IMG/VR virus record: IMGVR_UViG_2851949629_000003
Source of the DNA: a virus
Taxonomy: Duplodnaviria > Heunggongvirae > Uroviricota > Caudoviricetes
DNA length: 22,307 nt
Reading direction: 5' to 3' (one strand)
The first letter of the stretch is position 1. Every line of letters starts with the position of its first letter. The translations under genes were made by a program, and so were the position numbers. The notes under the pieces are model-generated. The model had not been told where the DNA came from, ran no database searches, and saw only the letters and a program-made list of their open reading frames with translations. Positions 4,523 through 20,665 of the stretch are shown here, in pieces.

Positions 4523-4552
4523 GTAAGCGTTAACGGAGTGCCGTATTGACGC

Positions 4553-6166: not shown

Positions 6167-6196
6167 GACCGTTTTTATAATGCGGTCAGGAGTTTT

Positions 6197-6547
6197 TTAC
6201 AACATTGTCAGTGAGTTACGGCTGGATGTTTTTGGCTGACGCCAGTCCAGCTTATCGAGGAGCATTGCCAGTTGCGAGCGGGTAATGGATACCTTGCCGT
6301 CACGTACCGCAGGCCAGATAAACTGGCCTTCCTCCAGGCGTTTGGTGAACAGGCACAGACCATCAGCATCAGCCCAAAGAATTTTGACGGTGTCACCCCG
6401 TCGGCCACGGAAGATAAACAGGTGACCGGAGAAGGGATTATCATTCAGCACATGTTGTACCTGTTCTCCCAGTCCGTTGAAGGATTTACGCATATCGGTA
6501 ACGCCGGCAACGAGCCAGATACGGGTACCTGATGGGAGTGAGATCAT
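6197..6547 (-). CDS. tnpB: IS66-family TnpB accessory protein (116 aa)
   Basis: Middle ORF of the IS66 triplet. Its start overlaps the tnpA stop (6544-6547). Confidence 0.85.
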   Translation of the reverse strand: MISLPSGTRIWLVAGVTDMRKSFNGLGEQVQHVLNDNPFSGHLFIFRGRRGDTVKILWADADGLCLFTKRLEEGQFIWPAVRDGKVSITRSQLAMLLDKLDWRQPKTSSRNSLTML

Positions 6548-6969
6548 CTTCCCCTCCCGGTCAGTTCACGGATCAACACTGTGAGCAGCTCTGGCGATGG
6601 ATTTTCCAGCGTCATGTTACCGTGACGGAATTCCACCTTGCAGGAACTGGCACTGACTCTGGTCTGAGTGGAAGTGGATAAAGACGGCGCAATGGCCGCC
6701 ACAGGTTCTTTCTGCTCATCCGGCGTTATTTCTACAGGTAATAATTCAACGCCAGTGTCAGAAGAGGTCGTTACCGGAAGACGCCGCGAAACACGCCCTT
6801 CGTTCTGCCAGAGCCTGAGCCATTTGAAAATAACATTATCATTGACGCCATTTTCACGTGCAATCTGTGCAACACAAGCTCCAGGTTGTGATGCCAGTTC
6901 CACCATACGAAGTTTGAATTCATTCGAATAGTTTTTACGAGGTTCTTTTCGCCAGTCCTGTAATTCCAT
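6544..6969 (-). CDS. tnpA: IS66-family TnpA (141 aa, helix-turn-helix)
   Basis: First ORF of the IS66 triplet, with a conserved N-terminal DNA-binding-like segment (FKLRMVELASQPGA...IFKWLRLWQ). Confidence 0.85.
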   Translation of the reverse strand: MELQDWRKEPRKNYSNEFKLRMVELASQPGACVAQIARENGVNDNVIFKWLRLWQNEGRVSRRLPVTTSSDTGVELLPVEITPDEQKEPVAAIAPSLSTSTQTRVSASSCKVEFRHGNMTLENPSPELLTVLIRELTGRGR

Positions 6970-7054
6970 ACTTAGATGTCCGTCTATATCAGATGGGCGT
7001 CTAAGTTACCAATTCTCGTCTGATGGCTACATACGGCGGTCAGTTTACGCTTAC

Positions 7055-7062
7055 AATGTCTG
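7055..7062. repeat. Right 8-bp target-site duplication AATGTCTG of IS66 copy 1
   Basis: Identical to 4515-4522. Confidence 0.85.
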
Positions 7063-7989
7063 AGCCTGACTCTGCATAAAGGTTTTATCTTTCAGCATGT
7101 CACTGGTCATTAACGGCAGATTTCTTTCCGATGCAAAGTCGACAGCAGCCTTTGCTTCAGGCGACATATCACCACGAACAGCCCTCGAAACCGCACTCGC
7201 TGTATTTTCCAGCCCCTTACCAATACCACCAATGCCAGCAGAAATTACCGTTTGTAACGGATCAATATCTTCTCCACCAGCGAGGCTGGTGGCTCCCTGT
7301 AGTGCTAAATCTGTAGCTGCTGATTTCCCTATGGCCCCCAGCACCGTTCCGGCCCTGCCCGCTGGTGTAAACGCCAGCGCATTAGCCAGAAACGATGCCA
7401 CGTCTTGCGGCGATAAACCCGGCTTGTTCAGAGCATAATCACCGGATGGCAGGGAAACGATAGTGTTACCCTTCTCATCCTGCCTTAATTTCGCTCCCAT
7501 GCTCTGAAGAATCTTTTCCTGAGATGCGTCAGAGCCGAAAAGTTGAGACCATCGAGTTTTTAGAGCATCCATGCTGAGTGAGGTTAACTCTGGGGCAAGG
7601 TCGACATTTTGCAGTCTCTCCATCTCTGGAGTCATTCGGCTTTCGCCTGTTATAGCATCGCGCATCGCAGCCCCAAGGCTGGCTCCCTGTTCTGCTGAAC
7701 GCTCAAGCCCCTCTCTTTGCTGAGTAGCTAACTTTGCATACCCTGACGCAAGAGAATTATCAGATGATGTATGTTGAATATTTTGAGTTGCTGATTGGGC
7801 TCGGTCTATTTCATTCGTTGATGGTAGTGGATAGGCAGCATAAAAAGCCTGCTTAGCCTGCTCTACACTTTCTCCGGCTTGCGGGGCAACGACTTCATTG
7901 AAGTATTGCTCCTGAGCCTGCGCTTTTTGTTCTGGTGCTAACGCCTGATACTGTGGAGAAGCGATAACATCTTTCCATGCTTTAGCCAT
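7055..7989 (-). pseudogene. 5' portion (native codons 7063-7989, 309 aa) of the IS-split ~701-codon gene
   Basis: ATG at 7987-7989 overlaps the upstream stop (TAATG). The apparent stop at 7051-7053 lies inside the IS terminus. Frame continues into 4522 when the IS is excised. Confidence 0.7.
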
Positions 7990-9410
7990 TAATCACCCCA
8001 TAGTGAAGAAAAGTTACTGCTGGCTGCTGGCTGTGATACCTGCTCAGATTGCGGCAATGTCTGCGACGAAGAAGAAGTTCCTCTGTCAACTGCTGAAATA
8101 ACCCGCAAAGCATCATAAGCTCGACCAGAAGCAGCTTTCAGCGAATTGAACTGGTTTTCCATCTTCCGGCGCTTGGTATCAATGGTTTTTGTGGAGTCGC
8201 CAGGCTGAGGGAAATACATTTGATAATATTTTGACATTTCAGCAGGTACGATAGCTGCCCCTGTTTCCTGACGGAGTATTGCCATTATTGCGTCATTAGC
8301 ATTAACAACGTATTGCTGCTCTGTTGGGCTGAGCGTTAAGTTAGCCAGCGTCCCATTACCCAAAGCATTATTAATGATCGCCACTCGCTGTGGGCTAAGC
8401 TGGTCTTTCAGTGTATCTATTGAATCAAGAGCATCCCTAACCCTGTATGCAAATCCAGCAGCTTTTTTAGCCCCTTCTGGCGACTTTTCCATGATCTTTT
8501 GGGCTGTTGGCAAAGCTATTGGACGAAACCCATCTCCAGATATTGGCTGGTTTAGTTTTCCCTGCTCTTCACTTCCGTCTGTGTAGTATTTTGTGACAGT
8601 GCCATCATCGTTTTCTCTAACACTCATTAATTTTTTGGCGTTTGTATTAATTCCAGCCGCTGCCGCAAATGCCGCCGCCCCCTCTGGATCCTCCTTTAAC
8701 ATTTGAGCGTACTGATTGTAATTCTGCATTGCTGCTGTTGGTGCATATGCTGACGTTAACGCATTTGCTCGGCTAATATCCTGCCCTCTCGCCTGAAGTG
8801 CTTCGCCAGCCTGATTGCTGCGGATTGTTTCTGCCAACTTGCCACGCTCAATATCCCGACCTTCCATTTGATCTTTGATATCGAAATACTTCTCATGACC
8901 GAGAGAAAACAGTGCCATACTACCAGCAAGCCGCTGGAATCCCTGTGGATCATTAACATGCATTTCGGCAACAGACTCAGGAGAAATTCCCAAGCGACGC
9001 ATTTCATCTTCGTTATCTGCTATGAATTTTCCAAATGCCCCAGTTCCGAGCGAAGATGCGATTTGAGCACTAGTCGCAAGATGACCAATAGAATTTCTCT
9101 GGTCGTCATCAATAAAGCCCATCCCTTTCTGAACGCTTTCAAATTCTTCTGGATACTCAGAAATAAGACTGCGCATTTTGTTTCTGTCTCCAGACTCAAA
9201 AGCCCCGGCATATGCTTTCTGAAACTCTGCTTTACGCTGTTGTTGACGTGCCTGCTGATTAATCTCAGCAACGCCTCTTAGCCCCTGTAGCGCCATTAAA
9301 CCTACGTTTGGCTGCTGCTGATACTGCACAGGCTGAGGAACGGAAGAACGAGGAGCATTATCATTTTGCGGTGCCATGCTAGGCAGCCCGCCAAGTTGCC
9401 ATGTCGCCAT
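7989..9410 (-). CDS. Q-rich low-complexity protein (473 aa); possible phage ejection/DNA-transfer-type protein
   Basis: Coupled to both neighbours by TAATG overlaps at 9410 and 7989. Q/A-rich, coiled-coil-like composition. Family assignment is inference. Confidence 0.75.
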   Translation of the reverse strand: MATWQLGGLPSMAPQNDNAPRSSVPQPVQYQQQPNVGLMALQGLRGVAEINQQARQQQRKAEFQKAYAGAFESGDRNKMRSLISEYPEEFESVQKGMGFIDDDQRNSIGHLATSAQIASSLGTGAFGKFIADNEDEMRRLGISPESVAEMHVNDPQGFQRLAGSMALFSLGHEKYFDIKDQMEGRDIERGKLAETIRSNQAGEALQARGQDISRANALTSAYAPTAAMQNYNQYAQMLKEDPEGAAAFAAAAGINTNAKKLMSVRENDDGTVTKYYTDGSEEQGKLNQPISGDGFRPIALPTAQKIMEKSPEGAKKAAGFAYRVRDALDSIDTLKDQLSPQRVAIINNALGNGTLANLTLSPTEQQYVVNANDAIMAILRQETGAAIVPAEMSKYYQMYFPQPGDSTKTIDTKRRKMENQFNSLKAASGRAYDALRVISAVDRGTSSSSQTLPQSEQVSQPAASSNFSSLWGD

Positions 9411-10087
9411 TAGAATCCAAGCCCCCCAACAAGACCAATAAGCCCACCACCAATAGCCCCGGCGACATTACCTATACCCGGAACAACGGAACCAAGTTGC
9501 GCACCCGCTAAAGCGCCTGATGCCGCCCCACCAATACCACGCGCAAGACTGGATGGCTGCTGCGCCTGACCTGCACGAATAGCGCCAAGCCCCTGCAAGA
9601 GTTGCCCGGTATTATTGGCGTAGTTTTGCCCTGCTGTTGCCTGCCCTGATGCCGCATTCATCCCGACATTTAGCAGGTTTCCATAATTTTGCATTTGCCC
9701 ACTGAGCCAATTGTTATAAAGCATGGGCGCAATGGAAGATAACTGGTTACTGGTAGCTGTTGAGCCAAGCCCCCCGGTAGCTTCTGCTGAGACAAGGTTC
9801 TGATAACGGGCCTGATCTGCCTGTGTTTTATATAAACCAGAACCAAAGAAATCATTCGCGGCTTTATTCTGCCCTTCCAGAGTCATCAGTCCTTGTAGTT
9901 GTTGTAAAGCAGGCAATCCGACTTCTGCATACGGCTTGAGATTATTCATCACCGTATTCCACTGCTCGCGCTGCAAATCAATTGCCTGCTGCTGGGCCTT
10001 CGCCTGAGCTTTAGAGGCACCACCATCACCGCCTTTTTCGTATACGGCACGATTGAGATGTTTATGAGCTATATGGGTAATTAACAT
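9410..10087 (-). CDS. Gly/Gln-rich protein with glycine-zipper-like hydrophobic C-terminus (225 aa); possible ejection-type protein
   Basis: Start overlaps the upstream stop by 7 nt (ATGTTAA). C-terminus GIGGAASGALAGAQLGSVVPGIGNVAGAIGGGLIGLVGGLGF. Confidence 0.75.
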   Translation of the reverse strand: MLITHIAHKHLNRAVYEKGGDGGASKAQAKAQQQAIDLQREQWNTVMNNLKPYAEVGLPALQQLQGLMTLEGQNKAANDFFGSGLYKTQADQARYQNLVSAEATGGLGSTATSNQLSSIAPMLYNNWLSGQMQNYGNLLNVGMNAASGQATAGQNYANNTGQLLQGLGAIRAGQAQQPSSLARGIGGAASGALAGAQLGSVVPGIGNVAGAIGGGLIGLVGGLGF

Positions 10088-10542
10088 TCGCTGAGTTCCT
10101 TATATTGTTGCCGTGTTAACTGATAAAGCGTTACGCCGACGGGTTTACCACATCTGATATATGCATCGGCCAGGTGACCAACACGGGTAGCGCCAAGCAA
10201 ACGGATAATTGCCCGTCCGTATTTCGTGGTGTCAGGAACCATGGTGATGCTGTTAAGGAATGGTGAGTTTTCGAGAAGCCATTTGCAGAACAATCGATGC
10301 CCTTGCAGTGCATATTCACCACGGAATCCGGGGTCGTACACCGCATGGCATTCAACAATGCTATGCCAGAAGTTACGCACTTCATGAACGCCTGTCAGCA
10401 CTAATCCTTCGTAGATGCCGAGATATACCGCATCAGGCTTGATGTAGTACGTGTGCCCCGGCTCAACAATATTTTCGGTATTGCCAGGCTCGTTAAGAAA
10501 GGCCTGTAATCGCACCGGGTTATCAATAAATTTTAGTTCCAT
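10081..10542 (-). CDS. Hypothetical protein (153 aa), first large gene of the cassette
   Basis: ATG at 10542 with weak GGATGG Shine-Dalgarno. Coupled to the downstream gene. Confidence 0.7.
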   Translation of the reverse strand: MELKFIDNPVRLQAFLNEPGNTENIVEPGHTYYIKPDAVYLGIYEGLVLTGVHEVRNFWHSIVECHAVYDPGFRGEYALQGHRLFCKWLLENSPFLNSITMVPDTTKYGRAIIRLLGATRVGHLADAYIRCGKPVGVTLYQLTRQQYKELSEC

Positions 10543-10558
10543 GCGGTGCCATCCGTTT

Positions 10559-10720
10559 TCACATACAGCCTGCCAGCGCCTTATCTATTAACCCTCGTGC
10601 AATTTCATGCAGAGTTGGCGCTACTCCAATTCCTGATTTTTTACGCTGCTCTTCCTGAATTTTCTTTATCGCTTCCATTTGCTTCTCACTTATCAATACC
10701 GGCTTTACTGAAATAGCCAT
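10559..10720 (-). CDS. Small hypothetical protein (53 aa), possible leader or small regulator of the cassette
   Basis: Not in the supplied track (under 60 aa). ATG at 10718-10720 preceded by AAGGGGG. Translates to MAISVKPVLISEKQMEAIKKIQEEQRKKSGIGVAPTLHEIARGLIDKALAGCM. Stop is 17 bp before the 10542 start. Confidence 0.4.
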   Translation of the reverse strand: MAISVKPVLISEKQMEAIKKIQEEQRKKSGIGVAPTLHEIARGLIDKALAGCM

Positions 10721-10738
10721 AACGCCCCCTTAGAACTG

Positions 10739-10790
10739 TATAAAACAACAGTTATTATAGTTTCGCAAATCGCAATATTCATCATCGTAA
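10739..10790 (-). promoter_or_regulatory. Candidate sigma70 promoter for the cassette operon
   Basis: Minus-strand TATAAT (plus 10754-10759) about 34 nt upstream of the 10720 ATG. The -35 is weak, with two TTGCGA repeats nearby. Confidence 0.25.
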
Positions 10791-10813
10791 TTGCAAAATA
10801 TGAAACAAATAGC

Positions 10814-10846
10814 ACAAAAAAACGCCACCGCTCAGTAGCTGGTGGC
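10814..10846 (-). terminator. Rho-independent terminator on the minus strand, downstream of the primase operon and iteron cluster B
   Basis: Minus-strand RNA GCCACCAGCUACUGAGCGGUGGC (GC-rich stem) followed by GUUUUUUUG. Confidence 0.55.
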
Positions 10847-11041
10847 ATCGTTCTGTGTGTCAGGTTTTGACAGGTTTTTTATGGACTCTAAAAACTATAT
10901 TTATGGTGTCGCATTACTCTTCACGGCAGGCGCTTTTCAGTTCTGCCCTTGCTTCTGGCTCCATTGGTAATTTGATTCGCGATCAGCTATGCGGATGGTT
11001 TGCTGAACAGGCATAACAACTTCTCAGGGGCTGTTTTCTGA

Positions 11042-11118
11042 ACTACGAAAATTTCGTAGTGCTCACTTTCAAAAACGTCACGCCCTTGTACACAGGATTT
11101 TACGAAAGTCTCGTAAAA
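11042..11118. promoter_or_regulatory. Two palindromes sharing a TTACGAAA/TTTCGTAA core; candidate protein-binding sites
   Basis: ACTACGAAA-A-TTTCGTAGT (11042-11060, 9-bp arms) and TTTTACGA-aagtc-TCGTAAAA (11098-11118, 8-bp arms). Confidence 0.3.
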
Positions 11119-11160
11119 CACTCTCTGATGCCAGCCAGGTGTTGTGCGCATCAATTCAGT

Positions 11161-11286
11161 CACATTGTGTTGGTTCAAAATACCGTGTTGTTGGTTCAGT
11201 GTTGGTTCAATAAAAAGAATAAAATCATTATAAAACAATACTCTTTACAAATTGAACCAACTGAACCAACTGAACCAACACCTTTT
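11161..11286. repeat. Iteron cluster B: three GTTGGTTCA units (11169-11209) and three tandem TGAACCAAC units (11253-11279); inverted copy of cluster A, directly 3' of the primase gene
   Basis: Read directly. 11242-11286 is the exact reverse complement of 1204-1248. Confidence 0.75.
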
Positions 11287-11304
11287 CTACGCACATGAAG
11301 AAGC

Positions 11305-14064
11305 TCATTCTTCAGATGAGTTATAATCTCCTGGCTGGTAATTGAGTACATAAACGTTTATTTGTCGTCCCTGAATACGTGGTGATTTTCTTTGGTATCC
11401 ACGACCGCTGTTTGGTGGGGTTAGCATCCCGGCTTTTTTCAACACTTCAGCAAACTGTTTTGCGTTGAAACCACATGCGATCTCCTTTTCAAATGTGGCC
11501 GGGAATGTGTAGAAAATCATTGGGCTTTCGTCATGTTCTCCACGCTGACGGTATCCGGCTAAATCTTTGATGGGCAAATCTGCCGGGCTGTATGGAAATG
11601 GTGCAAAACGGCTAAGCCCATAGGCATTAAGAAATGCCTCCGTTTGTTCAATAATCTGCTGATGTTCTTTGTTACCTGTGCCGAACTCGCGCAACCATGC
11701 GTTATAGCTGTGCTGTATCGCATCACGGCATGTCTGAGCATCCCAGCCTGTTACAACCTCGCCTAACAGCAATGCGGCCTCCAGAATGGCAAATCGCGCG
11801 GCTACACGGTGAACCTGCTCACCATAATCGGATGGGATCAGACTTCTCCATCTGCTTTCGCAGTCACGAACAGTTTTAATTGCCTGTTGCTGGTGGTCTG
11901 CCAGCCATTTAATCCACTCACGCCCGGCTGCGCCGTGGTGATGCTGGTAAGCGTCTTTCAGTGCGTCTGCGTGCTGTTTTCCGTTCTGGTAATCGTGAAA
12001 GCGTACTGCTTTACTCAACGGAATATTCAGCAGTCGCACCAGTTGCCCGGCTTTGGTTTTTCGCCCGGAAGTAGCGATAAATGTTTCTAAATCCATTTCT
12101 CCGGTGCTGATTGCCACTGTACGCCAGCGTTTTAGATCCCGGTTTCCACCATCTTTAGCGCCTTGCAGTTTCCCTACACCGTTAAATAACGCATAGGCAG
12201 ACTGTGAAACGCTGACAGGATCTGCGCCCTGACCAACTTCATCAAGCGGCATTAGTCCGTCATTGTGGGCGGCAGCTTCATTTGCCAGCCCCAGCGCGGT
12301 TCCGTACCACGTCAGCCGCAGTAAATCAGGGTTGCCGTATAAGCTGCTCGCCACGTTTGCCGTGGTGGTCTTACCTGCGCTCGACTGCTCATAGAAATGA
12401 ATGCCGAACCCGTCAGCGCCCACCAGCCCAATCAATGGCGCTGCCAGTGCTGCGCCGATCCCGGTCATCATTGAATAGTTACCAAAGGCCAGACGCGCCA
12501 CGCTATCACGCCAGCTTTTCGCGCTCCCTGAGATAGTATATCCGGCTGCGGCTGAGCTTCTCCCGCTGAACAGCACAGGATTTTCAGGTGTTCCGATGAT
12601 TTCCCCATCAGGCATGATGTACGCTCCGCATTGCCAGCCAGTGGCATGAGCAACACGCCACAATTCACGAGAGCCACTGCGTTGTAGCCAGTCTGCCAGT
12701 ATTGCTCTGAGGCTGCTTTTGGTCGTGACATTTACCCCACCAGCTTTAAGTGTGCGCCATCCTTCACGTTCACCAATATCAGCCAGTGGAATGGCAGCGG
12801 TTGTCGGCGTTTCAGAACCAAACGACAGCCAGCGAAGAATGAGATACTGGTCTTTATCGTCTCTGCCAGTACCGATAACGCTTAACGGAGAACATAACCA
12901 GCTTTCGTTATTGATGATTTCTCCACTCTGGCTGTCAGCTCTCGGAGATACCCAATAAATACCATCCTCGCGGCTTTCTATTCTTGGTTTCAGTGGGTCG
13001 GTATCCATAACCTTAAAATCGCTTCCTTCAATGGTCTGTGGCTCCTGTTTCACGCCATTACCCTGTGGTTGGTACATTGATTTATTGAACGCTTCTGTAG
13101 CGCATTTAATGCCGTGTTTTTGGTGGTAATCATTCCAGTCTGCTTTGTGATCTGTCGGGGGTAATGCCACCCATCCAGAAACAGATAAAGCTGCTTTTTC
13201 TGCTGCTATTCTCCCCGTGTTTTGTCTTCCTTCGCTGTGGTCGTTATCCGCAGCAATGATGATTTGTGCTGAAGGAAATTTATCCCGCAGTACCTGGGCG
13301 ACATATAACAGGTTCCCGGCATCAATCGCCGCCACTGTCAGCGCCTCTGGACGAATTAAATGGGCAGATAATGCCGTTGCCAGCCCTTCTGCGATTAAGA
13401 TGCTCTGTGTTGTTTCTGGTGCGTTTATGGCGTGATATGCCCCTCGCTTTGCTGAACCTGTCAGGAGTCTTTTTTCACCATGTGAGGTAATAGTCTGTGC
13501 TGCTGTTACTGCGCCGGATTTATCCACCAGCGCCAGCAACAGAGATCCATCGGGCAACACGGGGAATGTAAAATCACCTACCCCTTTCGCAACCAGATAA
13601 TCAGATTTGCCGTTTACAGCCTTTCTGCGCATGTCATCAAACTGACGGGAAAACGTATCCCGTCTTTGTTGTTCGTCCTTCTCTGCCCTTTTCAGGCGCT
13701 CCTGTTCGCGTCGCTGGCGCTCGGTTTCCAGTTGTTCCCGTTTCTGGCTGGTGGCTTCTGGTGTTTCCGTTGTCCGGTAATCAATACCCAGAACATCAGC
13801 GGCAAGAAGCGCCGCCTCTGTTGTGTCGCAGTTATTTACGCGTTTAATTAAATCCAGCCCATCACCAGCGCCGCACTGATTACAGATGAAGCTACCGCGC
13901 CCGTTGTCATCGAACCGGAATCGATCTTTACCCCCACATGCAGGGCAGGGAGCATGACGGCGTGGAGAGTCAGGGACATTTATGTTCAGGCAGCCCAGCA
14001 CATGAGGCCAGTTGTTTTCAGACGCACTGATAACCTGACGGATAAGATCAATGTTTCGCATCAC
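11305..14064 (-). CDS. Primase-helicase (P4 alpha-like architecture: zinc ribbon + TOPRIM + P-loop NTPase), 919 aa
   Basis: Zinc ribbon CPACGG...CNQCG near the N-terminus, TOPRIM-like acidic motif IIIAADNDH, P-loop-like SAGKTTT. GTG at 14064 or ATG at 14061. Iterons lie immediately downstream. Confidence 0.85.
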   Translation of the reverse strand: MMRNIDLIRQVISASENNWPHVLGCLNINVPDSPRRHAPCPACGGKDRFRFDDNGRGSFICNQCGAGDGLDLIKRVNNCDTTEAALLAADVLGIDYRTTETPEATSQKREQLETERQRREQERLKRAEKDEQQRRDTFSRQFDDMRRKAVNGKSDYLVAKGVGDFTFPVLPDGSLLLALVDKSGAVTAAQTITSHGEKRLLTGSAKRGAYHAINAPETTQSILIAEGLATALSAHLIRPEALTVAAIDAGNLLYVAQVLRDKFPSAQIIIAADNDHSEGRQNTGRIAAEKAALSVSGWVALPPTDHKADWNDYHQKHGIKCATEAFNKSMYQPQGNGVKQEPQTIEGSDFKVMDTDPLKPRIESREDGIYWVSPRADSQSGEIINNESWLCSPLSVIGTGRDDKDQYLILRWLSFGSETPTTAAIPLADIGEREGWRTLKAGGVNVTTKSSLRAILADWLQRSGSRELWRVAHATGWQCGAYIMPDGEIIGTPENPVLFSGRSSAAAGYTISGSAKSWRDSVARLAFGNYSMMTGIGAALAAPLIGLVGADGFGIHFYEQSSAGKTTTANVASSLYGNPDLLRLTWYGTALGLANEAAAHNDGLMPLDEVGQGADPVSVSQSAYALFNGVGKLQGAKDGGNRDLKRWRTVAISTGEMDLETFIATSGRKTKAGQLVRLLNIPLSKAVRFHDYQNGKQHADALKDAYQHHHGAAGREWIKWLADHQQQAIKTVRDCESRWRSLIPSDYGEQVHRVAARFAILEAALLLGEVVTGWDAQTCRDAIQHSYNAWLREFGTGNKEHQQIIEQTEAFLNAYGLSRFAPFPYSPADLPIKDLAGYRQRGEHDESPMIFYTFPATFEKEIACGFNAKQFAEVLKKAGMLTPPNSGRGYQRKSPRIQGRQINVYVLNYQPGDYNSSEE

Positions 14065-14419
14065 CGTACCCCACGTGGTCTATAGCGTTTGCGATATGGC
14101 TAACCAGCATCTGCCACTTGGTTATTCCGTAATCAGTCAGCATGCCATCATTGTTTAGCCACATATCAAATTCAGCGGTTGTCGCAAGTTTCCACTTATC
14201 GCCGTGGACAGTCCTCATTGCTGGGTACATGAATGCGCAAATCAGATCACAAACATCTGACGGCTTCAGAGATGTAGTAATGGTGCGTCCCTCTGGCGTC
14301 TGAATTGCCATTTTCTCTTCACCAGTAGAATGAAGGTTATGAATCCACACAGCACCAGCAATCTTTGCCACCTGCTCTCCGATTGCGGAGCTAAGCGCCA
14401 TTTCTGCATTTTCACGCAT
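14048..14419 (-). CDS. Hypothetical protein (123 aa), replication-module operon
   Basis: ATG at 14419 with GGGAGG Shine-Dalgarno. Overlaps the primase start. Confidence 0.6.
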   Translation of the reverse strand: MRENAEMALSSAIGEQVAKIAGAVWIHNLHSTGEEKMAIQTPEGRTITTSLKPSDVCDLICAFMYPAMRTVHGDKWKLATTAEFDMWLNNDGMLTDYGITKWQMLVSHIANAIDHVGYGDAKH

Positions 14420-14753
14420 GAGAACCTCCCGCTACAGTTGCGCCCATGTCATTAACCATGCTTTGCCATATCTCACGCCCGACGTCAGTCAATCCGTCCT
14501 TAGTGACGCAACGCTCAATAAGCTCGATCCCCACGGTTTCCCACTGCGGGTAGAACACTTTCATGGCTGCCAGTGTGTAGCTATCGATCAGGCTGCGAAC
14601 GCCTTTTACTCCATTGACGATTTCCACACGTACGGCCTCGCCGTCCGCATCAACCATGAAATAGTCCCCTCCGCTGGTGGAGGTAATGTGGTTATACAGT
14701 GCCGACGCATACTTATTTGCCAGCGCATTCAGTCGGAAATTTTTAGTAATCAT
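14412..14753 (-). CDS. Hypothetical protein (113 aa)
   Basis: ATG at 14753 with GAGGATGG Shine-Dalgarno. Stop overlaps the next start. Confidence 0.6.
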   Translation of the reverse strand: MITKNFRLNALANKYASALYNHITSTSGGDYFMVDADGEAVRVEIVNGVKGVRSLIDSYTLAAMKVFYPQWETVGIELIERCVTKDGLTDVGREIWQSMVNDMGATVAGGSHA

Positions 14754-14763
14754 GGTTCCATCC

Positions 14764-15366
14764 TCAGTGCGTCACTGGTTCCGATGGCATGCCGTTTTCA
14801 TTCAGTTCAGCTATAAAGCTGTTGTGAAGTTCAGCAAGCGTTTCACGACCAAATGGAGTCAGTGCTCCTTGTTCCACATCCATCATGGCTCTGTAGAAAA
14901 TGATGGAGCGTTCTGTGCCAGACTCGATGCCAAAACGTTCTATCATCGCTCCCTCAATGTTGTTTGCCATAGCGAGGCGCTCTGCTACTGGATACAGCGG
15001 CATGGCAACGATGCCGTTGGAATAAACAGCCACTTCGGAAGGATTGCCAGTATCATCAATGATGCTGACAGTGCCGTTTTCCTCTCTCATTTCCAGCATG
15101 AATACTGTTGCGATCAGCCATCTCCACATAATGACGTTATGCTGTGATGTGTAATCGAAATATCCCTGGTTGCCGCCATCGGCTATAGCGAGATGTATTG
15201 ACATACCTTCATCTGGTTTATCGTCATAATCCCCGGCATCCAGACGATTTACGGCATCAATATATGAGACGGTCTCAACGCGTTCTGTCATGCCATCGTT
15301 GCTGCGGTGCATGATGTTTACGCCGTCAGGCGTTGCTTCTGCATGGAAAGTTAAGAAATTATTCAT
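14764..15366 (-). CDS. Hypothetical protein (200 aa from MNNFLTF...; the track's longer ORF extends to 15471)
   Basis: ATG at 15364-15366 with GAGG Shine-Dalgarno, in the ATGAATAA overlap with the upstream stop. The longer version would overlap the upstream gene by about 100 nt. Confidence 0.6.
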   Translation of the reverse strand: MNNFLTFHAEATPDGVNIMHRSNDGMTERVETVSYIDAVNRLDAGDYDDKPDEGMSIHLAIADGGNQGYFDYTSQHNVIMWRWLIATVFMLEMREENGTVSIIDDTGNPSEVAVYSNGIVAMPLYPVAERLAMANNIEGAMIERFGIESGTERSIIFYRAMMDVEQGALTPFGRETLAELHNSFIAELNENGMPSEPVTH

Positions 15367-15580
15367 GTTTCGCCTCGCCTGAATGATTCTGTAACTCATA
15401 TTTGCCCAACAATTCGTCTGCTTCCTGAATAGCTTCTGGTACGCCATTGAGCAGTGACATAACCGCGCCAATCATTAACTTGTCTCTGTTGCTTGGGCTG
15501 GCCCCTTCAAGCCAGAACCCTAAAACAGTCTGAACCTGTGCGATGCGACATTGCGCTTCAATGAGCTGGATGTTGGTCAT
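15359..15580 (-). CDS. Hypothetical small protein (73 aa)
   Basis: ATG at 15580 with GGAGAG Shine-Dalgarno. Overlaps the upstream stop. Confidence 0.55.
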   Translation of the reverse strand: MTNIQLIEAQCRIAQVQTVLGFWLEGASPSNRDKLMIGAVMSLLNGVPEAIQEADELLGKYELQNHSGEAKHE

Positions 15581-15840
15581 TTCGCACTCTCCACATCGAT
15601 TAAACTGATATCTATCAGGGAGGTGACTTTTTGTAGCCAGCTATTGATTACTGTCGCCTGTTCCCCTCCCACCGAGGGAATAATCTCATTCATCACATGA
15701 ACCAGACCTGTGCGCGCTCTGGTAAGCCGTTCAGTCGCGCAATCTGCGGGAGTGAATGTGTCTGGATATGGCTCTTCGCGCCCCAGCAATGATTCAATTT
15801 CCAGCTCACACGGATGACGATAAATTAAGTTGATATTCAT
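15577..15840 (-). CDS. Hypothetical small protein (87 aa)
   Basis: ATG at 15840 with GGGGGTG Shine-Dalgarno. ATGA overlap with the upstream gene. Confidence 0.55.
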   Translation of the reverse strand: MNINLIYRHPCELEIESLLGREEPYPDTFTPADCATERLTRARTGLVHVMNEIIPSVGGEQATVINSWLQKVTSLIDISLIDVESAK

Positions 15841-16031
15841 TTTTCACCCCCAAGAATTACCAGCTCTGCACGGGCATCGTTAACCAAAGATGAGCACGCT
15901 TTAATCGCATCCACGACATCAGCAGCGTCCATCTCTTCAGCCGAAAGACTGACAGCAAGCAGGACAGCCGCTGCTTGCTCGATTAATTGAAGTGCGGACG
16001 TAAGGCGAGGGGTATTAATTGAGTTATTCAT
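15837..16031 (-). CDS. Hypothetical small protein (64 aa from MNNSINT...; track ORF extends to 16088)
   Basis: ATG at 16029-16031 with GGGGG Shine-Dalgarno, in the ATGAATAA overlap with the 355-aa gene stop. Confidence 0.55.
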   Translation of the reverse strand: MNNSINTPRLTSALQLIEQAAAVLLAVSLSAEEMDAADVVDAIKACSSLVNDARAELVILGGEK

Positions 16032-17091
16032 TGGTTGCCCCCGTTTTGCATGGCATTTGTCCACCTTCCAGCAGGAAATGAACGTCACGAACGGCGAGAT
16101 CCAATATCGCGAGTAACGCCTTCAGTTTTTCGTCTCGTGAGGGAGAGTTGCTCACCAGAATGTCATTAATCACTTCTGTCAGTGTGATGATCTGGCTTGT
16201 GCGTTCGAGGGGATCCATATGCACATCGTAGGTTTTAATCATGTGCCACCTCCATGCGGATACGACCAGCAAAAAAGCAGACGTGATCGCGCACCAGAGA
16301 ACGGCGAGCATCGCGTTCAGACTCGGCAGCAATATGATGAATTTTGGCGGTAATTGTCGGGCAATCGCGGCGAACTGCGGCGATAATCCAGATAAATTGC
16401 GGTTTTTGGGTAGGGGTAGTAGCCAGCATGTGGCAGCCTCCTTCAGATAGCAGGTTACGCTACCACCGGAAACGCCAATTTCGCTGGTGGTAGCCCAGAC
16501 AGGGTTGGCGTAACCGGCTCTGAAGGATACCGGCGCTTCCGAAGAAGCCCCCGCCTGAGCCACCATTGATTGACAAAGGCGCTGGATTATACACCAACGC
16601 CCAAAAAATGGGTGAGTCAGACCTACGACATAAAAAAAGACGCTCGGCGCGTCATATGTCGCCTTCAGAATTTTCAGGACGCCAATCCCGGCACCCGTTT
16701 TATGAGGTGCCTTATAACCATAAACCGTGTTGCCGCATAACGGCAAGCTCTTTTTTATGGACTCCGAAAACTCGCTATTGGAAGCACCAGATGCACAGTA
16801 CATCGCGCTCATTTCGTTAACGTCACGCGCGTGGACGAATGTTTTTGTGGAGTCACTACACGAGCGGAAGACATCATCTACGACCAGAAATTCTCTGGCG
16901 CAGCCGCTGACCTTCTCAATGCTAATATCATCGCCCGAGATTTCTGGTATGGTTAAGGCATCCGTTCCGACCACCAGCAAATGATAAACTTTGCTTGTAT
17001 CTGCTGTATTAATGCCTGACTTTGCTGTCATATTGCTGTATTTTGGCGACATACCAGCCAGTGAAAATATCTTCTTCTGGGCGGTTAGCAT
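16024..17091 (-). CDS. Hypothetical protein (355 aa), unrecognised; C-terminal half contains hydrophobic stretches
   Basis: ATG at 17091 with GGAGG Shine-Dalgarno. Coupled to both neighbours. No recognised motif. Confidence 0.55.
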
Positions 17092-17267
17092 TTGTTAACC
17101 TCCGCGAACTCCTTCATGAAACGTGCCAGCGGTTGTACGCATGGCGATTGATACCCGTCGCGATAAAACGTCACTCGGTTGTGAGACACGCTTTCGACAG
17201 TAACGAGTGCTCCGTGGGCATCTTTGTAGCGTTTTTGAGGTTGTGGTGTTCCTGTCGGCTTAAACAT
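17085..17267 (-). CDS. Hypothetical small protein (60 aa from MFKPTGT...; track ORF extends to 17354)
   Basis: ATG at 17265-17267 with GGAGG Shine-Dalgarno. Overlaps the upstream stop by 8 nt. Confidence 0.5.
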   Translation of the reverse strand: MFKPTGTPQPQKRYKDAHGALVTVESVSHNRVTFYRDGYQSPCVQPLARFMKEFAEVNKC

Positions 17268-17984
17268 GGACCGCCTCCAGACGCTTGGCGAGCCAGCGTT
17301 GCGACAGGCGGGTGAGTTCTCCTTTGCGCTGCTCATATTCCATGCCCATATCAATTAACGTGATATTGGTGCTTTCGAGATATGAGAGGTGCTCAAGCTG
17401 TTCTGCGTTCATATGGTCGCGAGGTTCGCCAGAATAGCCATTTATCCGCGCCCACTGCTTAGCAGTTAGCCCACCAAGAACGATACGAGAAATCATATTG
17501 CTCTCGTTTGTGTAGTGGTGTTGCTGCGTCGTTTTCCCCATCTCGGCACGGGCCATATTCAGCGCATCGCACATTGGCTTAAAGTTGTTTGCGGCACTGA
17601 TACGGGCTTTTAGCTGGCGACGATAGCGGGCGGCGATTTCAGGCACGCTACGCTGTAATTCTTCCTCGCACTGGATGAAATAACGGCGGATAGCGCGACC
17701 CTGATCATTGCGTTCGATCATTGCCAGTTCTTTTGCCATTCCGACACTTAACAGATAGTCTTTACCGGGTCTGCCAGAGTGCTTAATCTTGCTGTAAGCC
17801 GCGCTATTCGGGCTTTTCCCCAAATTTGGGGAAATAGTTTTATGGACTGAGTAATCGTGCCCAATGGTGAAGTCATATTCAGAGATGCGATCAGTGATCC
17901 ATGTAGAGAAGTCTTTTCCCACGCCCAACGCTTTGTGTAACGCTTTTGCGCTAACAATATTGGTTTCACGCCCACCTATATGAC
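17260..17984 (-). pseudogene. AntA-domain (phage antirepressor-type) gene, 5' end removed by IS66 copy 2
   Basis: Motifs SAKALHKALGVGKDFSTWI and GRPGKDYLLSVGMAKELAMIERNDQGRAIRRYFIQCE fit the AntA-type N-terminal domain as recalled. The frame is open from inside the IS terminus with no ATG or GTG start and no Shine-Dalgarno; the track's start is a TTG. Confidence 0.6.
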
Positions 17985-18014
17985 GTAAGCGTCAACGGAG
18001 CACCGTATTGACGC

Positions 18015-19628
18015 TTATTTATTAGTGAGTACTACGTTCCATGGCAGGAGTTCGTCAACTCGGTTGGAAGGCCATTCCGGCAGTACGCTCAGGATATGGC
18101 GCAGATACGCTTCCGGATCGATACCATTCAACCGGCAGGTGCCGATCAGCCCGTACAACAGTGCACCACGCTCGCCGCCGTGATCGCTACCGAAGAACAC
18201 GTAATTTTTCTTTCCGAGACAGACTGCACGAAGCGCTCTTTCCGCTGTGTTATTGTCCGCCTCCGCCAGACCGTCATCACAGAAGTTGCACAACGCAACC
18301 CAGTGCTTCCTGATATACCGGAACGCATCTCTCAGACGGCATTTTTTCGATAACGTGTGTTCTTTCTCCTGCATCAGCTTATACAGGGAAGTCAGTAGCG
18401 GTTTACTCTGCATTTGCCTGACCGCCAGGCGTTCAGACACCGGCAACCCGCGTATTTCGTGCTCAATGGCGTACAGTTCGCCGATTAGTTTCAGTGCTTC
18501 TTCCGCCGTCGCGCTTTTGGTACTGATATATACATCGTGGATTTTGCGCCGCGCATGAGCCCAGCATCCTGCTTCCGTCAACGCGCCGCCTTCACGTTCG
18601 GCACTGAACAGCCGATCGTAACCTGCGAACGCATCTGCCTGCAGGATACCCCGGAAGGGACGAAGGTGTTGCTCCGGATGTTTACCCTGATGGTCCGGTG
18701 AGTAGGCGAACCAGACCGCCGGAGGTTCTGGCGAACCGGCATTTCGGTCATCCCGGACATACGTCCAGATATATCCTGTTTTCGCCTTCTTCCTGCCCGG
18801 TGCCAGTACTTTTACTGGTGTGTCATCAGTGTGAACCTTGCGGGTGTTCATCACATAACTGTACAGGGCATCATTCAGCGGAGTCATTAACTGGCAGCAC
18901 GCATCAACCCAGTTGGAGAGTAAGGCACGGCTCAGTTCGACACCCTGGCGGGCAAAGATTTCACTCTGACGATACAGTGGCAGGTGTTCGCAGTATTTTC
19001 CCGTTAACACGCGGGCAAGTAACCCCGGGCCCGCGATACCACGCTCTATCGGACGGGATGGTGCCGGTGCTTCAACGATGCAGTCACATTTTGTACAGGC
19101 TTTTTTTACCCGTTCTGTGCGGATCACTTTCAGGGCGCTGCTCACCAGCTCCAGTTGTTCTGCGCTGACTTCCCCCAGATAATCCAGCTCACCGCCACAC
19201 TCCGGGCAACAGCTTTCTTCAGGCTCCAGGCGGTATATTTCACGGGGGAGATGTGCCGGTAACGGACGACGATGGCGCGACTGTCGCAACTGGCGGGGAA
19301 CCAGCGGGTCATCCTCACGCCCACTGTAACGATCGCTTTCCTGCTCGCGTTGTTTCAGCAGGACTTCAGCCTGTTCAACCTCACTACGCAGTTTTTCAGA
19401 ACGGGTTCCGAACAGCATCCGGCGCAGTTTTTCTATCTGAGCCCGCAGATGCTCTATTTCTCGCTCATCTTCTTCGATCTTTTCTTCGGCACGTGCCAGT
19501 GCAGAGCGCAGGAAGGCCTCCGTCTCTTCAACCAGACTCAGTTGCTGGTCTTTCTGACGGAGGGCTTCAGCCTGCTCAGAGAGCAGCCTTTCCAGCTCAG
19601 CGATGCGAATGAGGTATTTCTGACCCAT
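18015..19628 (-). CDS. tnpC: IS66-family transposase TnpC (537 aa), copy 2
   Basis: Collinear with the copy-1 TnpC, about 90% identical by eye. Confidence 0.9.
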   Translation of the reverse strand: MGQKYLIRIAELERLLSEQAEALRQKDQQLSLVEETEAFLRSALARAEEKIEEDEREIEHLRAQIEKLRRMLFGTRSEKLRSEVEQAEVLLKQREQESDRYSGREDDPLVPRQLRQSRHRRPLPAHLPREIYRLEPEESCCPECGGELDYLGEVSAEQLELVSSALKVIRTERVKKACTKCDCIVEAPAPSRPIERGIAGPGLLARVLTGKYCEHLPLYRQSEIFARQGVELSRALLSNWVDACCQLMTPLNDALYSYVMNTRKVHTDDTPVKVLAPGRKKAKTGYIWTYVRDDRNAGSPEPPAVWFAYSPDHQGKHPEQHLRPFRGILQADAFAGYDRLFSAEREGGALTEAGCWAHARRKIHDVYISTKSATAEEALKLIGELYAIEHEIRGLPVSERLAVRQMQSKPLLTSLYKLMQEKEHTLSKKCRLRDAFRYIRKHWVALCNFCDDGLAEADNNTAERALRAVCLGKKNYVFFGSDHGGERGALLYGLIGTCRLNGIDPEAYLRHILSVLPEWPSNRVDELLPWNVVLTNK

Positions 19629-19658
19629 GGCCGTTTTTATAATCCGGCCCGGCGTTTT

Positions 19659-20009
19659 TTACAACATTGTCAGTGCGTTAAGGCGGGATGTTTTTGGCTG
19701 ACGCCAGTCCAGCTTATCGAGGAGCATTGCCAGTTGCGAGCGGGTAATGGATATCTTACCGTCATGCACCGCAGGCCAGATAAACTGACCTTCCTCAAGG
19801 CGTTTGGTGAACAGGCACAGACCATCAGCATCAGCCCACAGGATTTTAATCGTGTCTCCCCGTCGGCCACGGAAGATAAACAGGTGACCGGAGAAGGGGT
19901 TATCATCCAGCACATGCTGTATCTGCTCCCCCAGACCGTTGAAGGATTTACGCATATCAGTAACGCCGGCAACGAGCCAGATACGGGTACCTGATGGGAG
20001 TGAAATCAT
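19659..20009 (-). CDS. tnpB: IS66-family TnpB (116 aa), copy 2
   Basis: Collinear with the copy-1 TnpB. Confidence 0.85.
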   Translation of the reverse strand: MISLPSGTRIWLVAGVTDMRKSFNGLGEQIQHVLDDNPFSGHLFIFRGRRGDTIKILWADADGLCLFTKRLEEGQFIWPAVHDGKISITRSQLAMLLDKLDWRQPKTSRLNALTML

Positions 20010-20443
20010 CGTCCCCTCCCGGTCAGCTCACGGATCAACACCGTGAGCAGCTCTGGTGAAGGATTTTCCAGCATCATTTTACCGTAATGGAATTCCACAT
20101 GGCAGGAAGCTGCACAAGCAACTGATAATGCCTCCGGAGCAGGAGCATCTGTAGCACAGCGCGGGGTGTCGATAAGTTCCACTGGAACCAGAGTCGGAGA
20201 GGCCGGAAAAGATTGTGATACTGTAGGGCCTACAATAGTTGGAGGCATTCTACGAGAAATACGTCCTTCTCTTTGCCAGAGGCGTAGCCATTTAAAAATC
20301 AGGTTGTTATCAACGCCATGTTCCCGGGCCAGTTGTGCAACATTGGCATTTGGTTTCGAAGCCAGTTCAACCATATGAAGTTTAAATTCATTAGAAAATA
20401 TCCGGCGGGTTCCGGAGCGCCAGTCTGTAGGTTTATCCATCAA
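20006..20443 (-). CDS. tnpA: IS66-family TnpA (145 aa), copy 2
   Basis: Conserved N-terminal segment (FKLHMVELASKP...IFKWLRLWQ); middle region diverged from copy 1. Confidence 0.85.
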   Translation of the reverse strand: MMDKPTDWRSGTRRIFSNEFKLHMVELASKPNANVAQLAREHGVDNNLIFKWLRLWQREGRISRRMPPTIVGPTVSQSFPASPTLVPVELIDTPRCATDAPAPEALSVACAASCHVEFHYGKMMLENPSPELLTVLIRELTGRGR

Positions 20444-20521
20444 TAGAACTCCGTCTAATTTAGAAGGAGCTCTAATTTAGTCTGCAAGGAGCAGGTGTTA
20501 CAGACGGCATTGGCTTTACGC

Positions 20522-20665
20522 TTACACAAAAGCAATTGCCCGACTTCCAATTTTTACCTGTTTAGGGAACCTCCCCTGACTAATAAGACGATAAATCCAT
20601 GCTTTGCTATAACCAGTTCGCCTTTGAACTTCAGAGAGACGAATTAATGAATTGTAATTAGCCAT
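20522..20665 (-). pseudogene. alpA: alpA-like (AlpA-family helix-turn-helix regulator) gene, 3' end truncated by IS66 copy 2
   Basis: Not in the track (47 codons). ATG at 20663-20665 with AGGA upstream. Translates to MANYNSLIRLSEVQRRTGYSKAWIYRLISQGRFPKQVKIGSRAIAFV; the stop codon is supplied by the IS terminus. Intact AlpA-family proteins are about 65-70 aa, so roughly 20 codons are missing. Confidence 0.6.

Follow-up and report, generated by a model that had tools for sequence, protein, structure and literature searches.

In the satellite P4, a constitutive promoter inside eta gives rise to short transcripts that are processed to the CI RNA. Pairing of CI with its target sequences leads to early termination, translation of eta from an upstream late promoter prevents this termination, and kil is a truncated form of eta (PMC10111431). 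Models of the C4 and isrK RNAs detect relatives of CI and seqA inside Bro-network genes of the phage-inducible chromosomal islands (PICIs) of Gram-negative bacteria (PMC10111431), and IsrK is a structural homolog of P4 seqA (PMC4825925). EcCIMP1, a PICI of E. coli MP1 found between proA and yagU, is excised, is alpA-dependent and is transduced by the P22-like phage Kapi1 (vB_EcoP_Kapi1), while its Kapi1 superinfection immunity is unexplained, known defense systems not having been detected (PMC11773190). Here, we analyzed IMG/VR record IMGVR_UViG_2851949629_000003, a stretch of 22,307 nucleotides (nt) referred to below as the window, and in it the chain of open reading frames (ORFs) that lies entirely on the minus strand and is read from 17984 to 11305. 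An original prediction, made from the letters alone, described this chain as a nine-gene translationally coupled operon of unrecognized proteins upstream of a primase. We consider it probable that the chain is the early operon, comprising the Bro and replication zones, of an EcCIMP1-type PICI that is a satellite of a P22-like phage, and that it is regulated like the P4 left operon.

Window positions 9250-17984 share 97.5% nucleotide identity with EcCIMP1 (locus L041 in our comparison, in which related loci carry L numbers), and the operon proteins are 92-100% identical to those of EcCIMP1 and stand in the same order. From this gene order and identity we assign the window to the EcCIMP1 family of PICIs, a kind of satellite that has already been published. 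The island is common: at least 80% of the region is present in 353 of 5426 complete E. coli genomes and some part of it in 1427 (megablast), and we put the number of complete genomes with this operon at about 250-350. In the intact copies L001 and L002, tRNA-Thr (beside proA) or yicC is followed by int, a gene of the AlpA helix-turn-helix family, a 143-amino-acid (aa) gene of the PM1773 family, antA (277 aa), DUF4222, 'ash', sometimes Icd, six hypothetical genes, a TOPRIM/DUF927 primase and a 53-aa gene; DUF2824, P22 gp7-like, gp20-like and gp16-like genes come next, and then PerC. Int, alpA, primase and phage-derived late genes are thus found in the order of the Gram-negative PICI layout, within about 15-20 kb, and the earlier description of an early operon of a satellite-type island that ends in a primase was right in kind. 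In L014 (1471-1538) and 13 other relatives, int is closely followed by the int-alpA RNA motif of Rfam (RF02996); this motif was not reported in the window scan at an expect value (E) of up to 1, and the int-alpA spacer is present there.

The evidence for P4-like regulation lies in a segment that was originally listed as a single 355-aa protein (ORF355). Its features are as follows.

16024-17091, minus strand: reading frame of P4 eta type, the '355-aa ORF', called 'ash family protein' by the Prokaryotic Genome Annotation Pipeline (PGAP); coupled to the DUF4222 gene and overlying the putative promoter, both RNAs and icd
16717-16746, minus strand: putative constitutive promoter, analog of P4 P_LE, with -35 TTGCCG at 16741-16746 and -10 TATGGT at 16717-16722
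16633-16710, minus strand: isrK or P4 seqA-type RNA (Rfam RF01394, 67.8 bits against a gathering threshold of 50, full length)
16679-16685 and 16662-16669, minus strand: seqA target boxes b1 (TTGGCGT) and a1 (TCTGAAGG), respectively, from box mapping
16483-16570, minus strand: C4 or P4 CI-type antisense immunity RNA (Rfam RF01695, 79.9 bits against a gathering threshold of 45, positions 1-87 of 87)
16519-16527 and 16505-16511, minus strand: C4 loops a' (UCCUUCAGA) and b' (ACGCCAA), respectively, from box mapping
16437-16478, minus strand: seqC-type downstream target, with b2 (TTGGCGT) at 16472-16478 and a2 (TCTGAAGGA) at 16440-16448
16235-16429, minus strand: icd/kil-type gene for a 64-aa Icd-like host cell division inhibitor (NCBIfam NF033153, 71.7 bits against a cut-off of 25)
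16024-16242, minus strand: orf72, with its own GGAGG and an ATG that overlaps the icd stop (ATGATTAA)

The two C4 loops have perfect matches of 7-9 nt at 16662-16685 and at 16440-16478, and the a2 box of the downstream target overlaps the Shine-Dalgarno (SD) sequence of icd (GGAGG, 16437-16441). Over the 22 kb, a search for the composite TTGGCGT-N(5-35)-CTGAAGG found three sites, with zero expected by chance, and these sites are only seqA, seqC and, as the complement, C4. The fold of C4 is also well conserved. Over 14 sequences ranging from E. coli to Symbiopectobacterium and 27 base pairs, 99.2% of the cells were paired, with slid controls pairing at 34-51%, and 12 pairs showed compensatory changes on both sides, values that none of 500 shuffles reached. 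Upstream, the promoter-like hexamers (TTGCCG-18-TATGGT) align with the annotated -10 of P4 (TATAGT) and with a CTTGCC that is kept in six of six elements, and the -10 ends about 7 nt before the isrK 5' end; in an alignment of the window with five elements, including P4, the pair CTTGCC/TAT(G/A)GT is conserved and the terminator is invariant. We suggest from sequence that this is an internal promoter. The 3' end of isrK forms an intrinsic terminator, with a hairpin at 16639-16653 and a T run, which in our scan was the only strong minus-strand terminator of the operon, and the isrK arrangement is the same in relatives.

Loops and targets also change together. At the first b box, its C4 complement and the second b box, the window reads TTGGCGT, ACGCCAA and TTGGCGT, an avian pathogenic E. 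coli (APEC) strain reads TTCGCAG, CTGCGAA and TTCGCAG, and P4 reads GTGAGAA, TTCTCAC and GTGAGAA. Both the a1/a'/a2 and the b1/b'/b2 sets co-vary three ways across six specificities. Sliding duplex folding of the full-length C4 along the region produced long-range pairings that could not be interpreted and was replaced by the exact composite pattern and by loop-restricted matrices, in which each C4 core was paired with the seqA and seqC of each element, cognate and non-cognate. The cognate duplex was the most stable in 12 of 12 rows, with means of -30 to -32 kcal/mol, as opposed to -20 to -21 kcal/mol for non-cognate pairs. The order isrK-C4-icd was found in all five E. coli and P4-like loci scanned, as well as in 13 of the 25 loci examined from Enterobacterales. 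The elements compared represent six or more different a/b specificities, and these imply hetero-immune groups of EcCIMP1- and P4-type satellites. The segment 16430-16746 is a swapped immunity cassette between otherwise near-identical islands (L004 and L041 versus the window): in a comparison with two 90%-identical islands, 16746-16430 is 29% divergent, with substitutions spread 35/27/30 over the codon positions, while divergence in the flanks is under 3%, with one change in 187 nt of icd and six in 211 nt of orf72.

The long reading frame over this module corresponds to eta. Its Phage_ASH match (Pfam PF10554, 117.4 bits against a gathering threshold of 26) covers aa 124-232, i.e. nt 16396-16722, and the isrK and C4 matches lie exactly under this domain. 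The P4 eta frame carries the same Pfam domain, and so does the homologous ORF that P4 records label first 'put. ash gene' and, in a later version, 'cI gene product (137 aa)'; both align with the window. In each of 17 elements out of 17, one frame runs without a stop from isrK through C4, in line with the requirement for eta translation that is reported for P4. In 13 of these 17, P4 included, the frame is in phase with icd and the two stop together; out-of-phase versions are found in the window, its close relative L004, L007 (E. coli NDM2) and L024 (a K. michiganensis element). Within the P4-like L007 (1333-2907), the out-of-phase eta-type frame has no stop for 524 codons and continues into a second tyrosine-recombinase gene immediately 3' of icd. 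In the window, icd is in the -1 frame relative to ORF355, and a tblastn search with P4 eta switches frame at the icd start. The Icd product, which was absent from the original prediction, matches phrog_1743 and phrog_6928 and is 100% identical to EcCIMP1 Icd; PGAP annotates the gene in L001, L003 and L041. A further comparison is provided by strain LWY24, which has the same immunity allele in the in-phase version: Ash and Icd form one ORF of 240 aa, and the 72-aa gene behind it has an annotation of its own (WP_000598361.1). The 355 codons are thus an eta-type N-terminal part, the icd DNA read out of frame (approximately codons 233-283) and orf72 (codons 284-355), the last probably a separate 72-aa gene. 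Both the earlier gene count and the '355-aa protein' are artifacts of a reading based on ORFs only, which passed over the nested icd, two Rfam RNA genes and the likely separate orf72.

While the identities, coordinates, covariation, frames, insertion damage and near-identity to EcCIMP1 were observed here, promoter use, RNA processing and the termination mechanism are inferred from P4, P1 and Gifsy-1, and the function of orf200 (below) is likewise a proposal. In the resting island, the internal promoter would produce short transcripts that would be processed, by RNase P as is typical of the C4 family, into stable C4/CI RNA. The a' and b' loops of C4 would then pair with seqA and seqC on new transcripts, and this pairing would block icd translation and cause premature termination, so that icd, the small genes and the primase would be off. 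When the helper is induced, AlpA would drive transcription from upstream, and translation of these transcripts in the eta frame would override the RNA block and turn replication on.

The remaining members of the chain, together with a putative origin, are listed below.

17260-17984, minus strand: antA', AntA/AntB family, 5'-truncated (Pfam AntA, 76.9 bits; 241 of 277 codons; no start codon)
17085-17267, minus strand: DUF4222 gene, 60 aa (Pfam PF13973, 87 bits), with a GGAGG and an 8-nt overlap with antA
15837-16031, minus strand: orf64, found in Escherichia and one Enterobacter locus; ratio of nonsynonymous to synonymous substitution rates (dN/dS) 0.16-0.22
15577-15840, minus strand: orf87, a conserved family with 12 related loci; 55% aa identity to the LP5-1 homolog
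15359-15580, minus strand: orf73, a conserved family with 10 loci (phrog_20558, a family of unknown function, E 4e-9); dN/dS 0.13-0.26
14764-15366, minus strand: orf200 (phrog_1515, E 1.5e-47), with 124 representatives at 50% identity
14412-14753, minus strand: orf113 (phrog_37628, a family of unknown function), a family extending from Yersinia to E. coli
14048-14419, minus strand: orf123, a narrow family of 21 homologs seen only with the TOPRIM/DUF927 primase
11305-14061, minus strand: primase-helicase, 918 aa (Pfam Zn-ribbon, Toprim and DUF927), with the PGAP start at ATG 14061
11169-11279, no strand assigned: putative replication origin directly 3' of the primase stop

Our junction script bore out a co-directional coupled chain over 17984-11305, both in its ORFs and in most of the overlaps. 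DUF4222 overlaps ORF355 by 7 nt, the ORF355 ATG lying over the DUF4222 stop. Overlaps of 8 nt are found between ORF355 and orf64 (16024-16031), between orf73 and orf200 (15359-15366) and between orf113 and orf123, the first two being the identical ATGAATAA junctions, each giving an MNN... start, exactly as had been noted. Both orf64/orf87 and orf87/orf73 overlap by 4 nt, and orf123 overlaps the primase by 14 nt, or by 17 nt if GTG 14064 is taken as the primase start. The claim that every start overlaps the preceding stop holds at these junctions and fails between orf200 and orf113, where a 10-nt gap is found. Similarly, the GGAGG-like ribosome-binding site that had been ascribed to every gene is a true GGAGG only before DUF4222, ORF355 and orf123, as well as before icd and orf72, which had not been listed, while the remaining starts follow weaker purine-rich stretches (GGGGG, GGAGAG, GAGG and GAGGA). 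The listed sizes of 60, 355, 64, 87, 73, 200, 113 and 123 aa hold for ORFs called mechanically. We assumed that the ORFs found on the plus strand of this region, 14418-14816 and 14677-15147 among them, are shadow ORFs of the minus-strand genes.

As to the products, the statement that no motif could be recognized does not apply to the 60-aa protein, which belongs to DUF4222, a recognized family of unknown function, nor to the 355-aa frame, which carries Phage_ASH, but stands for the products of 72, 64, 87, 73, 113 and 123 aa, for which Pfam, NCBIfam, PADLOC and PHROGs offered no informative family. None of these six had a significant Pfam, NCBIfam or PADLOC match; against PHROGs, only the 73- and 113-aa products matched, to the families of unknown function listed above. 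Extending the Pfam search to E of up to 10 returned only sub-threshold noise for the small ORFs. In PADLOC-DB 2.0, none of nine small proteins had a match, and the primase gave only a 14-bit DRT-primase-like match. The genes orf72, orf64, orf87 and orf73 all have dN/dS below 0.5, calculated from few changes (0.3-0.5 for orf72, likewise on few changes), and orf64 and orf72 are nearly confined to Escherichia. We also considered orf72, orf64 and orf73 as paralogous helical hairpins, an idea that was dropped when hhalign among eight small-protein families of this zone, these three and five more, yielded nothing above 25% probability. The genes downstream of icd are a variable accessory zone. Across L015-L037, the segment from icd to the orf200 homolog is a hot spot with at least eight interchangeable families of 55-90-aa proteins with no known function; one 66-aa family, present in eight of these loci, is absent from the window.

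The gene orf200 keeps its place by the primase. In a contig scan of Enterobacterales with an 8-sequence alignment as the query, it stood directly before the primase, or before orf113 and the primase, in 23 of 27 loci. The frame has a clear third-position bias (33 versus 12 and 12; 79 versus 32 and 26), and its AlphaFold2 model is confident (predicted local distance difference test score, pLDDT, 94.4; predicted template modeling score, pTM, 0.89), with no match in the PDB. By hhalign, the orf200 profile matches P4 ORF106 (DUF5375, PF17345) with 91.4% probability (E 9e-7, aa 76-186). In P4, the ORF106 gene lies directly upstream of alpha, and we take it to be cnr, the copy-number regulator acting on alpha. 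A cnr family is found between epsilon and alpha in 90% of P4-like elements (PMC8628076). The predicted structure of orf113 (pLDDT 91.6) has the topology helix, beta-hairpin, helix, helix, beta-hairpin, helix, which is that of the C-terminal half of orf200, and had no match in BFVD; its hhalign match to orf123 is weak (76%, E 2e-5) and that to orf200 reaches only 25%. From this comparison, orf123 is possibly a distant paralog of orf113. The genes are also modular with respect to the primase: orf113 precedes several different primase types, the E. coli block orf72-64-87-73-200 is joined to orf113, orf123 and a DUF927 primase, to orf113 and a DUF5906 primase, or to a DUF5906 primase directly, and relatives of orf200 and orf113 also precede P4-family primases. 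The resemblance of orf200 to ORF106 and its position before the primase favor a role in replication control, and we propose orf200, with moderate confidence, as a candidate regulator of the primase or initiator. Most likely, orf200, and possibly orf113 and orf123, would be Cnr-like modulators of this kind. The primase-helicase itself is 99.5% identical to that of EcCIMP1. The element that follows it consists of three direct GTTGGTTCA iterons (11253-11279), a 41-bp AT-rich spacer (11210-11252) and three inverted copies (11169-11209), and is likely the replication origin, a role suggested by position and architecture.

Several points that weigh against the P4-like regulation and the Cnr link need to be considered. 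The consensus promoter scan did not call TTGCCG/TATGGT, in which four of six positions match in each hexamer. The isrK terminator sits between this promoter and C4, and C4 production therefore requires read-through. Promoter use and expression in this element are presumed from the sequence. The published description of EcCIMP1 contains neither RNA immunity nor a C4/isrK/icd module (PMC11773190). The P4 arrangement of nested genes is not reproduced exactly, as the eta-type ORF covers the icd DNA in another frame: the SD-ATG spacer is 2 nt longer in the window (GGAGGCTGCCACATGCTGGCT) than in P4 (GGAGGCTGCCATCATGGCT), and icd is out of frame because of this difference. As for orf200, its proposed link to Cnr rests on one profile-to-sequence hhalign match. 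The Pfam DUF5375 model, to which P4 ORF106 itself scores 210.9 bits, misses orf200, orf113, orf123 and two orf200 homologs at E of up to 10, and hhalign found no detectable similarity of orf113 or orf123 to P4 ORF106. Finally, that ORF106 is cnr is our assumption, PMC8628076 going no further than to place cnr between epsilon and alpha.

Of the other explanations, the one that survives best is that the region in its entirety is an inert remnant of a prophage and at present has no function in this strain, which is possible, although we tend to doubt it. The copy in the window is clearly damaged, and the upstream end of the operon is marked by an insertion sequence (IS).

17985-20525, minus strand: IS66-family element, copy B (Pfam DDE_Tnp_IS66 on a 537-aa ORF), co-oriented with the operon

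Copy B ends in GTAAGCG inverted repeats and lacks a target-site duplication, in keeping with a deletion next to it, and indeed 616 bp that correspond to L002 11385-12000 are absent from the window beside it. This deletion removed the last 21 alpA codons, the whole PM1773-family gene and the first 109 nt of antA. What had been listed as the AntA-like first gene is therefore a 5'-truncated pseudogene, cut at 17984/17985, whose intact 277-aa homolog is found in L002, L001 and L041. IS copy B also separates the operon from its upstream promoter. A second element, copy A (4523-7054), which is 90% identical to copy B and in the same orientation, lies inside the gp16-like gene with an 8-bp duplication (CAGACATT) and is a simple insertion. 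The truncation of alpA and antA and the loss of the promoter link are what speaks for a remnant. Nonetheless, the ORFs from DUF4222 to the primase are all intact and nearly identical to those of the functional EcCIMP1, the internal promoter-like site and both RNAs are intact as well, and the damage therefore looks recent. With its route from upstream destroyed, the module is probably locked in the off, immune state and the copy defective; a related island that enters the cell could still be subject to its RNA immunity in trans.

Next comes the idea, raised by the original prediction for early-operon genes of such islands, that one or more of the 72-, 64-, 87-, 73-, 200-, 113- and 123-aa products is a factor for helper interference, derepression or anti-defense, which we judge unlikely. 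The small genes do occupy the position of P4 epsilon, the helper derepression gene, between kil/icd and the primase; the zone from icd to orf200 is variable, as described above; and the Kapi1 superinfection immunity of EcCIMP1 is still to be accounted for, with no known defense system detected (PMC11773190). Our searches gave no support to such a role, however. Besides the lack of PADLOC matches, no operon protein matches the P4 epsilon family (Derepression, PF25738), to which P4 epsilon itself scores 170 bits, and orf200 and orf113 have no structural match. Moreover, orf200 and orf113 track the primase rather than late or helper-specific genes, and the P22-type ejection-protein homologs of the late zone are equally good candidates for the superinfection phenotype. 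Not all of the products turned out to be well-characterized families with housekeeping roles, as six ORFs are uncharacterized, and for these six the idea of helper interference or anti-defense is therefore not refuted. A bolder proposal, to which we give somewhat less credence still, is that orf200, orf113 and orf123 may form an unrecognized Cnr-like family that docks satellite primase-helicases and sets copy number or replication timing, or else that one of the seven small proteins may be the factor behind the helper-dependent superinfection immunity of EcCIMP1 against Kapi1.

It is very unlikely that ORF355 is a genuine 355-aa protein of the Ash family, for example a regulator of Bro or antirepressor type, to which the RNA matches would be secondary. 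Such a protein is what PGAP calls in many genomes, and the ORF has a good GGAGG, is coupled to DUF4222, is open in all relatives and carries a strong Phage_ASH match. On the same sequence, however, PGAP calls the 355-aa 'ash family protein' in some annotations and, in others, 'ash, incomplete' together with Icd. Two covarying RNA genes occupy the very bases of the Ash domain, and substitutions in this domain fall evenly over the codon positions, as given above. Out-of-frame icd accounts for codons 233-283, and codons 284-355 are the separate gene of LWY24, where the same allele encodes the in-frame Ash+Icd ORF. Codons 1-115, in turn, have a dN/dS of 0.5-1.0, compared with 0.1-0.35 in neighboring genes (0.1-0.3 when the N-terminal part is set against its neighbors). 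The amino acid sequence of ORF355 does not look selected, and we keep to the reading of an eta-type frame over an RNA module. Finally, a programmed -1 frameshift at the icd start, joining Ash to Icd and recreating the in-frame Eta of P4 and relatives, is barely credible: icd is in the -1 frame, two PHROG families (phrog_6928 and phrog_29966) match the frames one after the other, first Ash and then Icd, and in-frame fusion is the majority state (13 of 17), but the junction (G GAG GCU GCC ACA UGC UGG) has no X XXY YYZ slippery heptamer, which makes such a frameshift unlikely, icd has its own strong SD and ATG, and three independent out-of-frame lineages end eta at different places, which argues that the fusion is dispensable.

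Beyond the operon, the minus strand at 7051-10542 carries a P22-type gene 14/7/20/16 cluster, recognized by Pfam as DUF2824, P22_gp7, Inj_translocase and a truncated gp16-like ORF; these ejection-protein homologs are candidates for the superinfection immunity of EcCIMP1. A strong hairpin with a T-run terminator lies 3' of the origin region (10815-10850, minus strand), and an AT-rich segment with a TATAAT (in ctataataac) lies ahead of the 53-aa gene (10735-10800, minus strand). Together, the terminator and the TATAAT suggest that the late genes may form a separate transcription unit.

The assignment of an EcCIMP1-type early operon with P4-like RNA control corrects the reading of a common island, as the '355-aa protein' is a frame over a P4-type RNA immunity switch. 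From the switch we would predict that EcCIMP1-type islands fall into homo-immunity groups, that the primase operon is under its control and that the IS-damaged copy is silent. The cargo that lacks characterization is narrowed to six small proteins and one Cnr-like candidate, which is useful in the search for the basis of EcCIMP1 superinfection immunity.

When compared with known systems, the window is closest to EcCIMP1, with which it agrees in gene order from int through to the cluster of ejection-protein genes; the intact L002 is integrated at the same site, thrW/proA. The window differs in having two IS66-family insertions and the 616-bp deletion (alpA', antA'), and in its immunity allele, which has CUGAAGG and UUGGCGU as its a/b loops, the allele of EcCIMP1 being of APEC type. 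The left operon of P4 runs vis/alpA, eta with P_LE, seqA, cI, seqC, kil, epsilon, orf151, ORF106 and alpha. Like P4, the window has a Phage_ASH eta-type frame over a promoter (putative in the window), seqA/isrK, CI/C4 and a seqC on the kil/icd ribosome-binding site, with a nested kil/icd, and small genes followed by a primase-helicase, orf200 resembling ORF106 in an equivalent position. Unlike in P4, icd is out of frame with eta, the PM1773 family, antA and DUF4222 lie between alpA and eta in islands of the window's type, no epsilon homolog is found among the operon proteins, the primase is of the Zn-ribbon/Toprim/DUF927 and not of the P4 alpha type, and the late zone consists of P22-type ejection proteins; psu, sid and delta are not annotated in the intact relatives L001, L002 and L041, although no search was aimed at these genes.

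The immI region of P1 and P7 (c4, icd, ant) is similar in that the a' and b' loops of C4 pair upstream and on the icd ribosome-binding site, with an Icd-like product following. There, the antirepressor ant is the regulated cargo downstream of icd, whereas here antA lies upstream and the cargo is replication genes. With isrK-orf45-anrP of Gifsy-1 in Salmonella (PMC4825925), the window shares a full-length isrK match that includes the terminator, an RNA downstream of isrK that in the window would likewise be processed and a translationally coupled ORF chain, while in Gifsy-1 IsrK activates orf45/anrP translation in trans (PMC4825925). The four zones described for Gram-negative PICIs, namely Integration, Bro, Replication and Late (PMC10111431), can all be recognized, as int/alpA, a Bro zone with C4/isrK, the primase and captured late genes, the last being of P22 gp14/gp7/gp20/gp16 type rather than genes for capsid or packaging redirection. 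The locus is thus a known kind of system, to which our analysis adds the RNA switch in EcCIMP1-type islands, its immunity alleles, an explanation for the unstable 'ash' annotation and the lead of a Cnr-like orf200.

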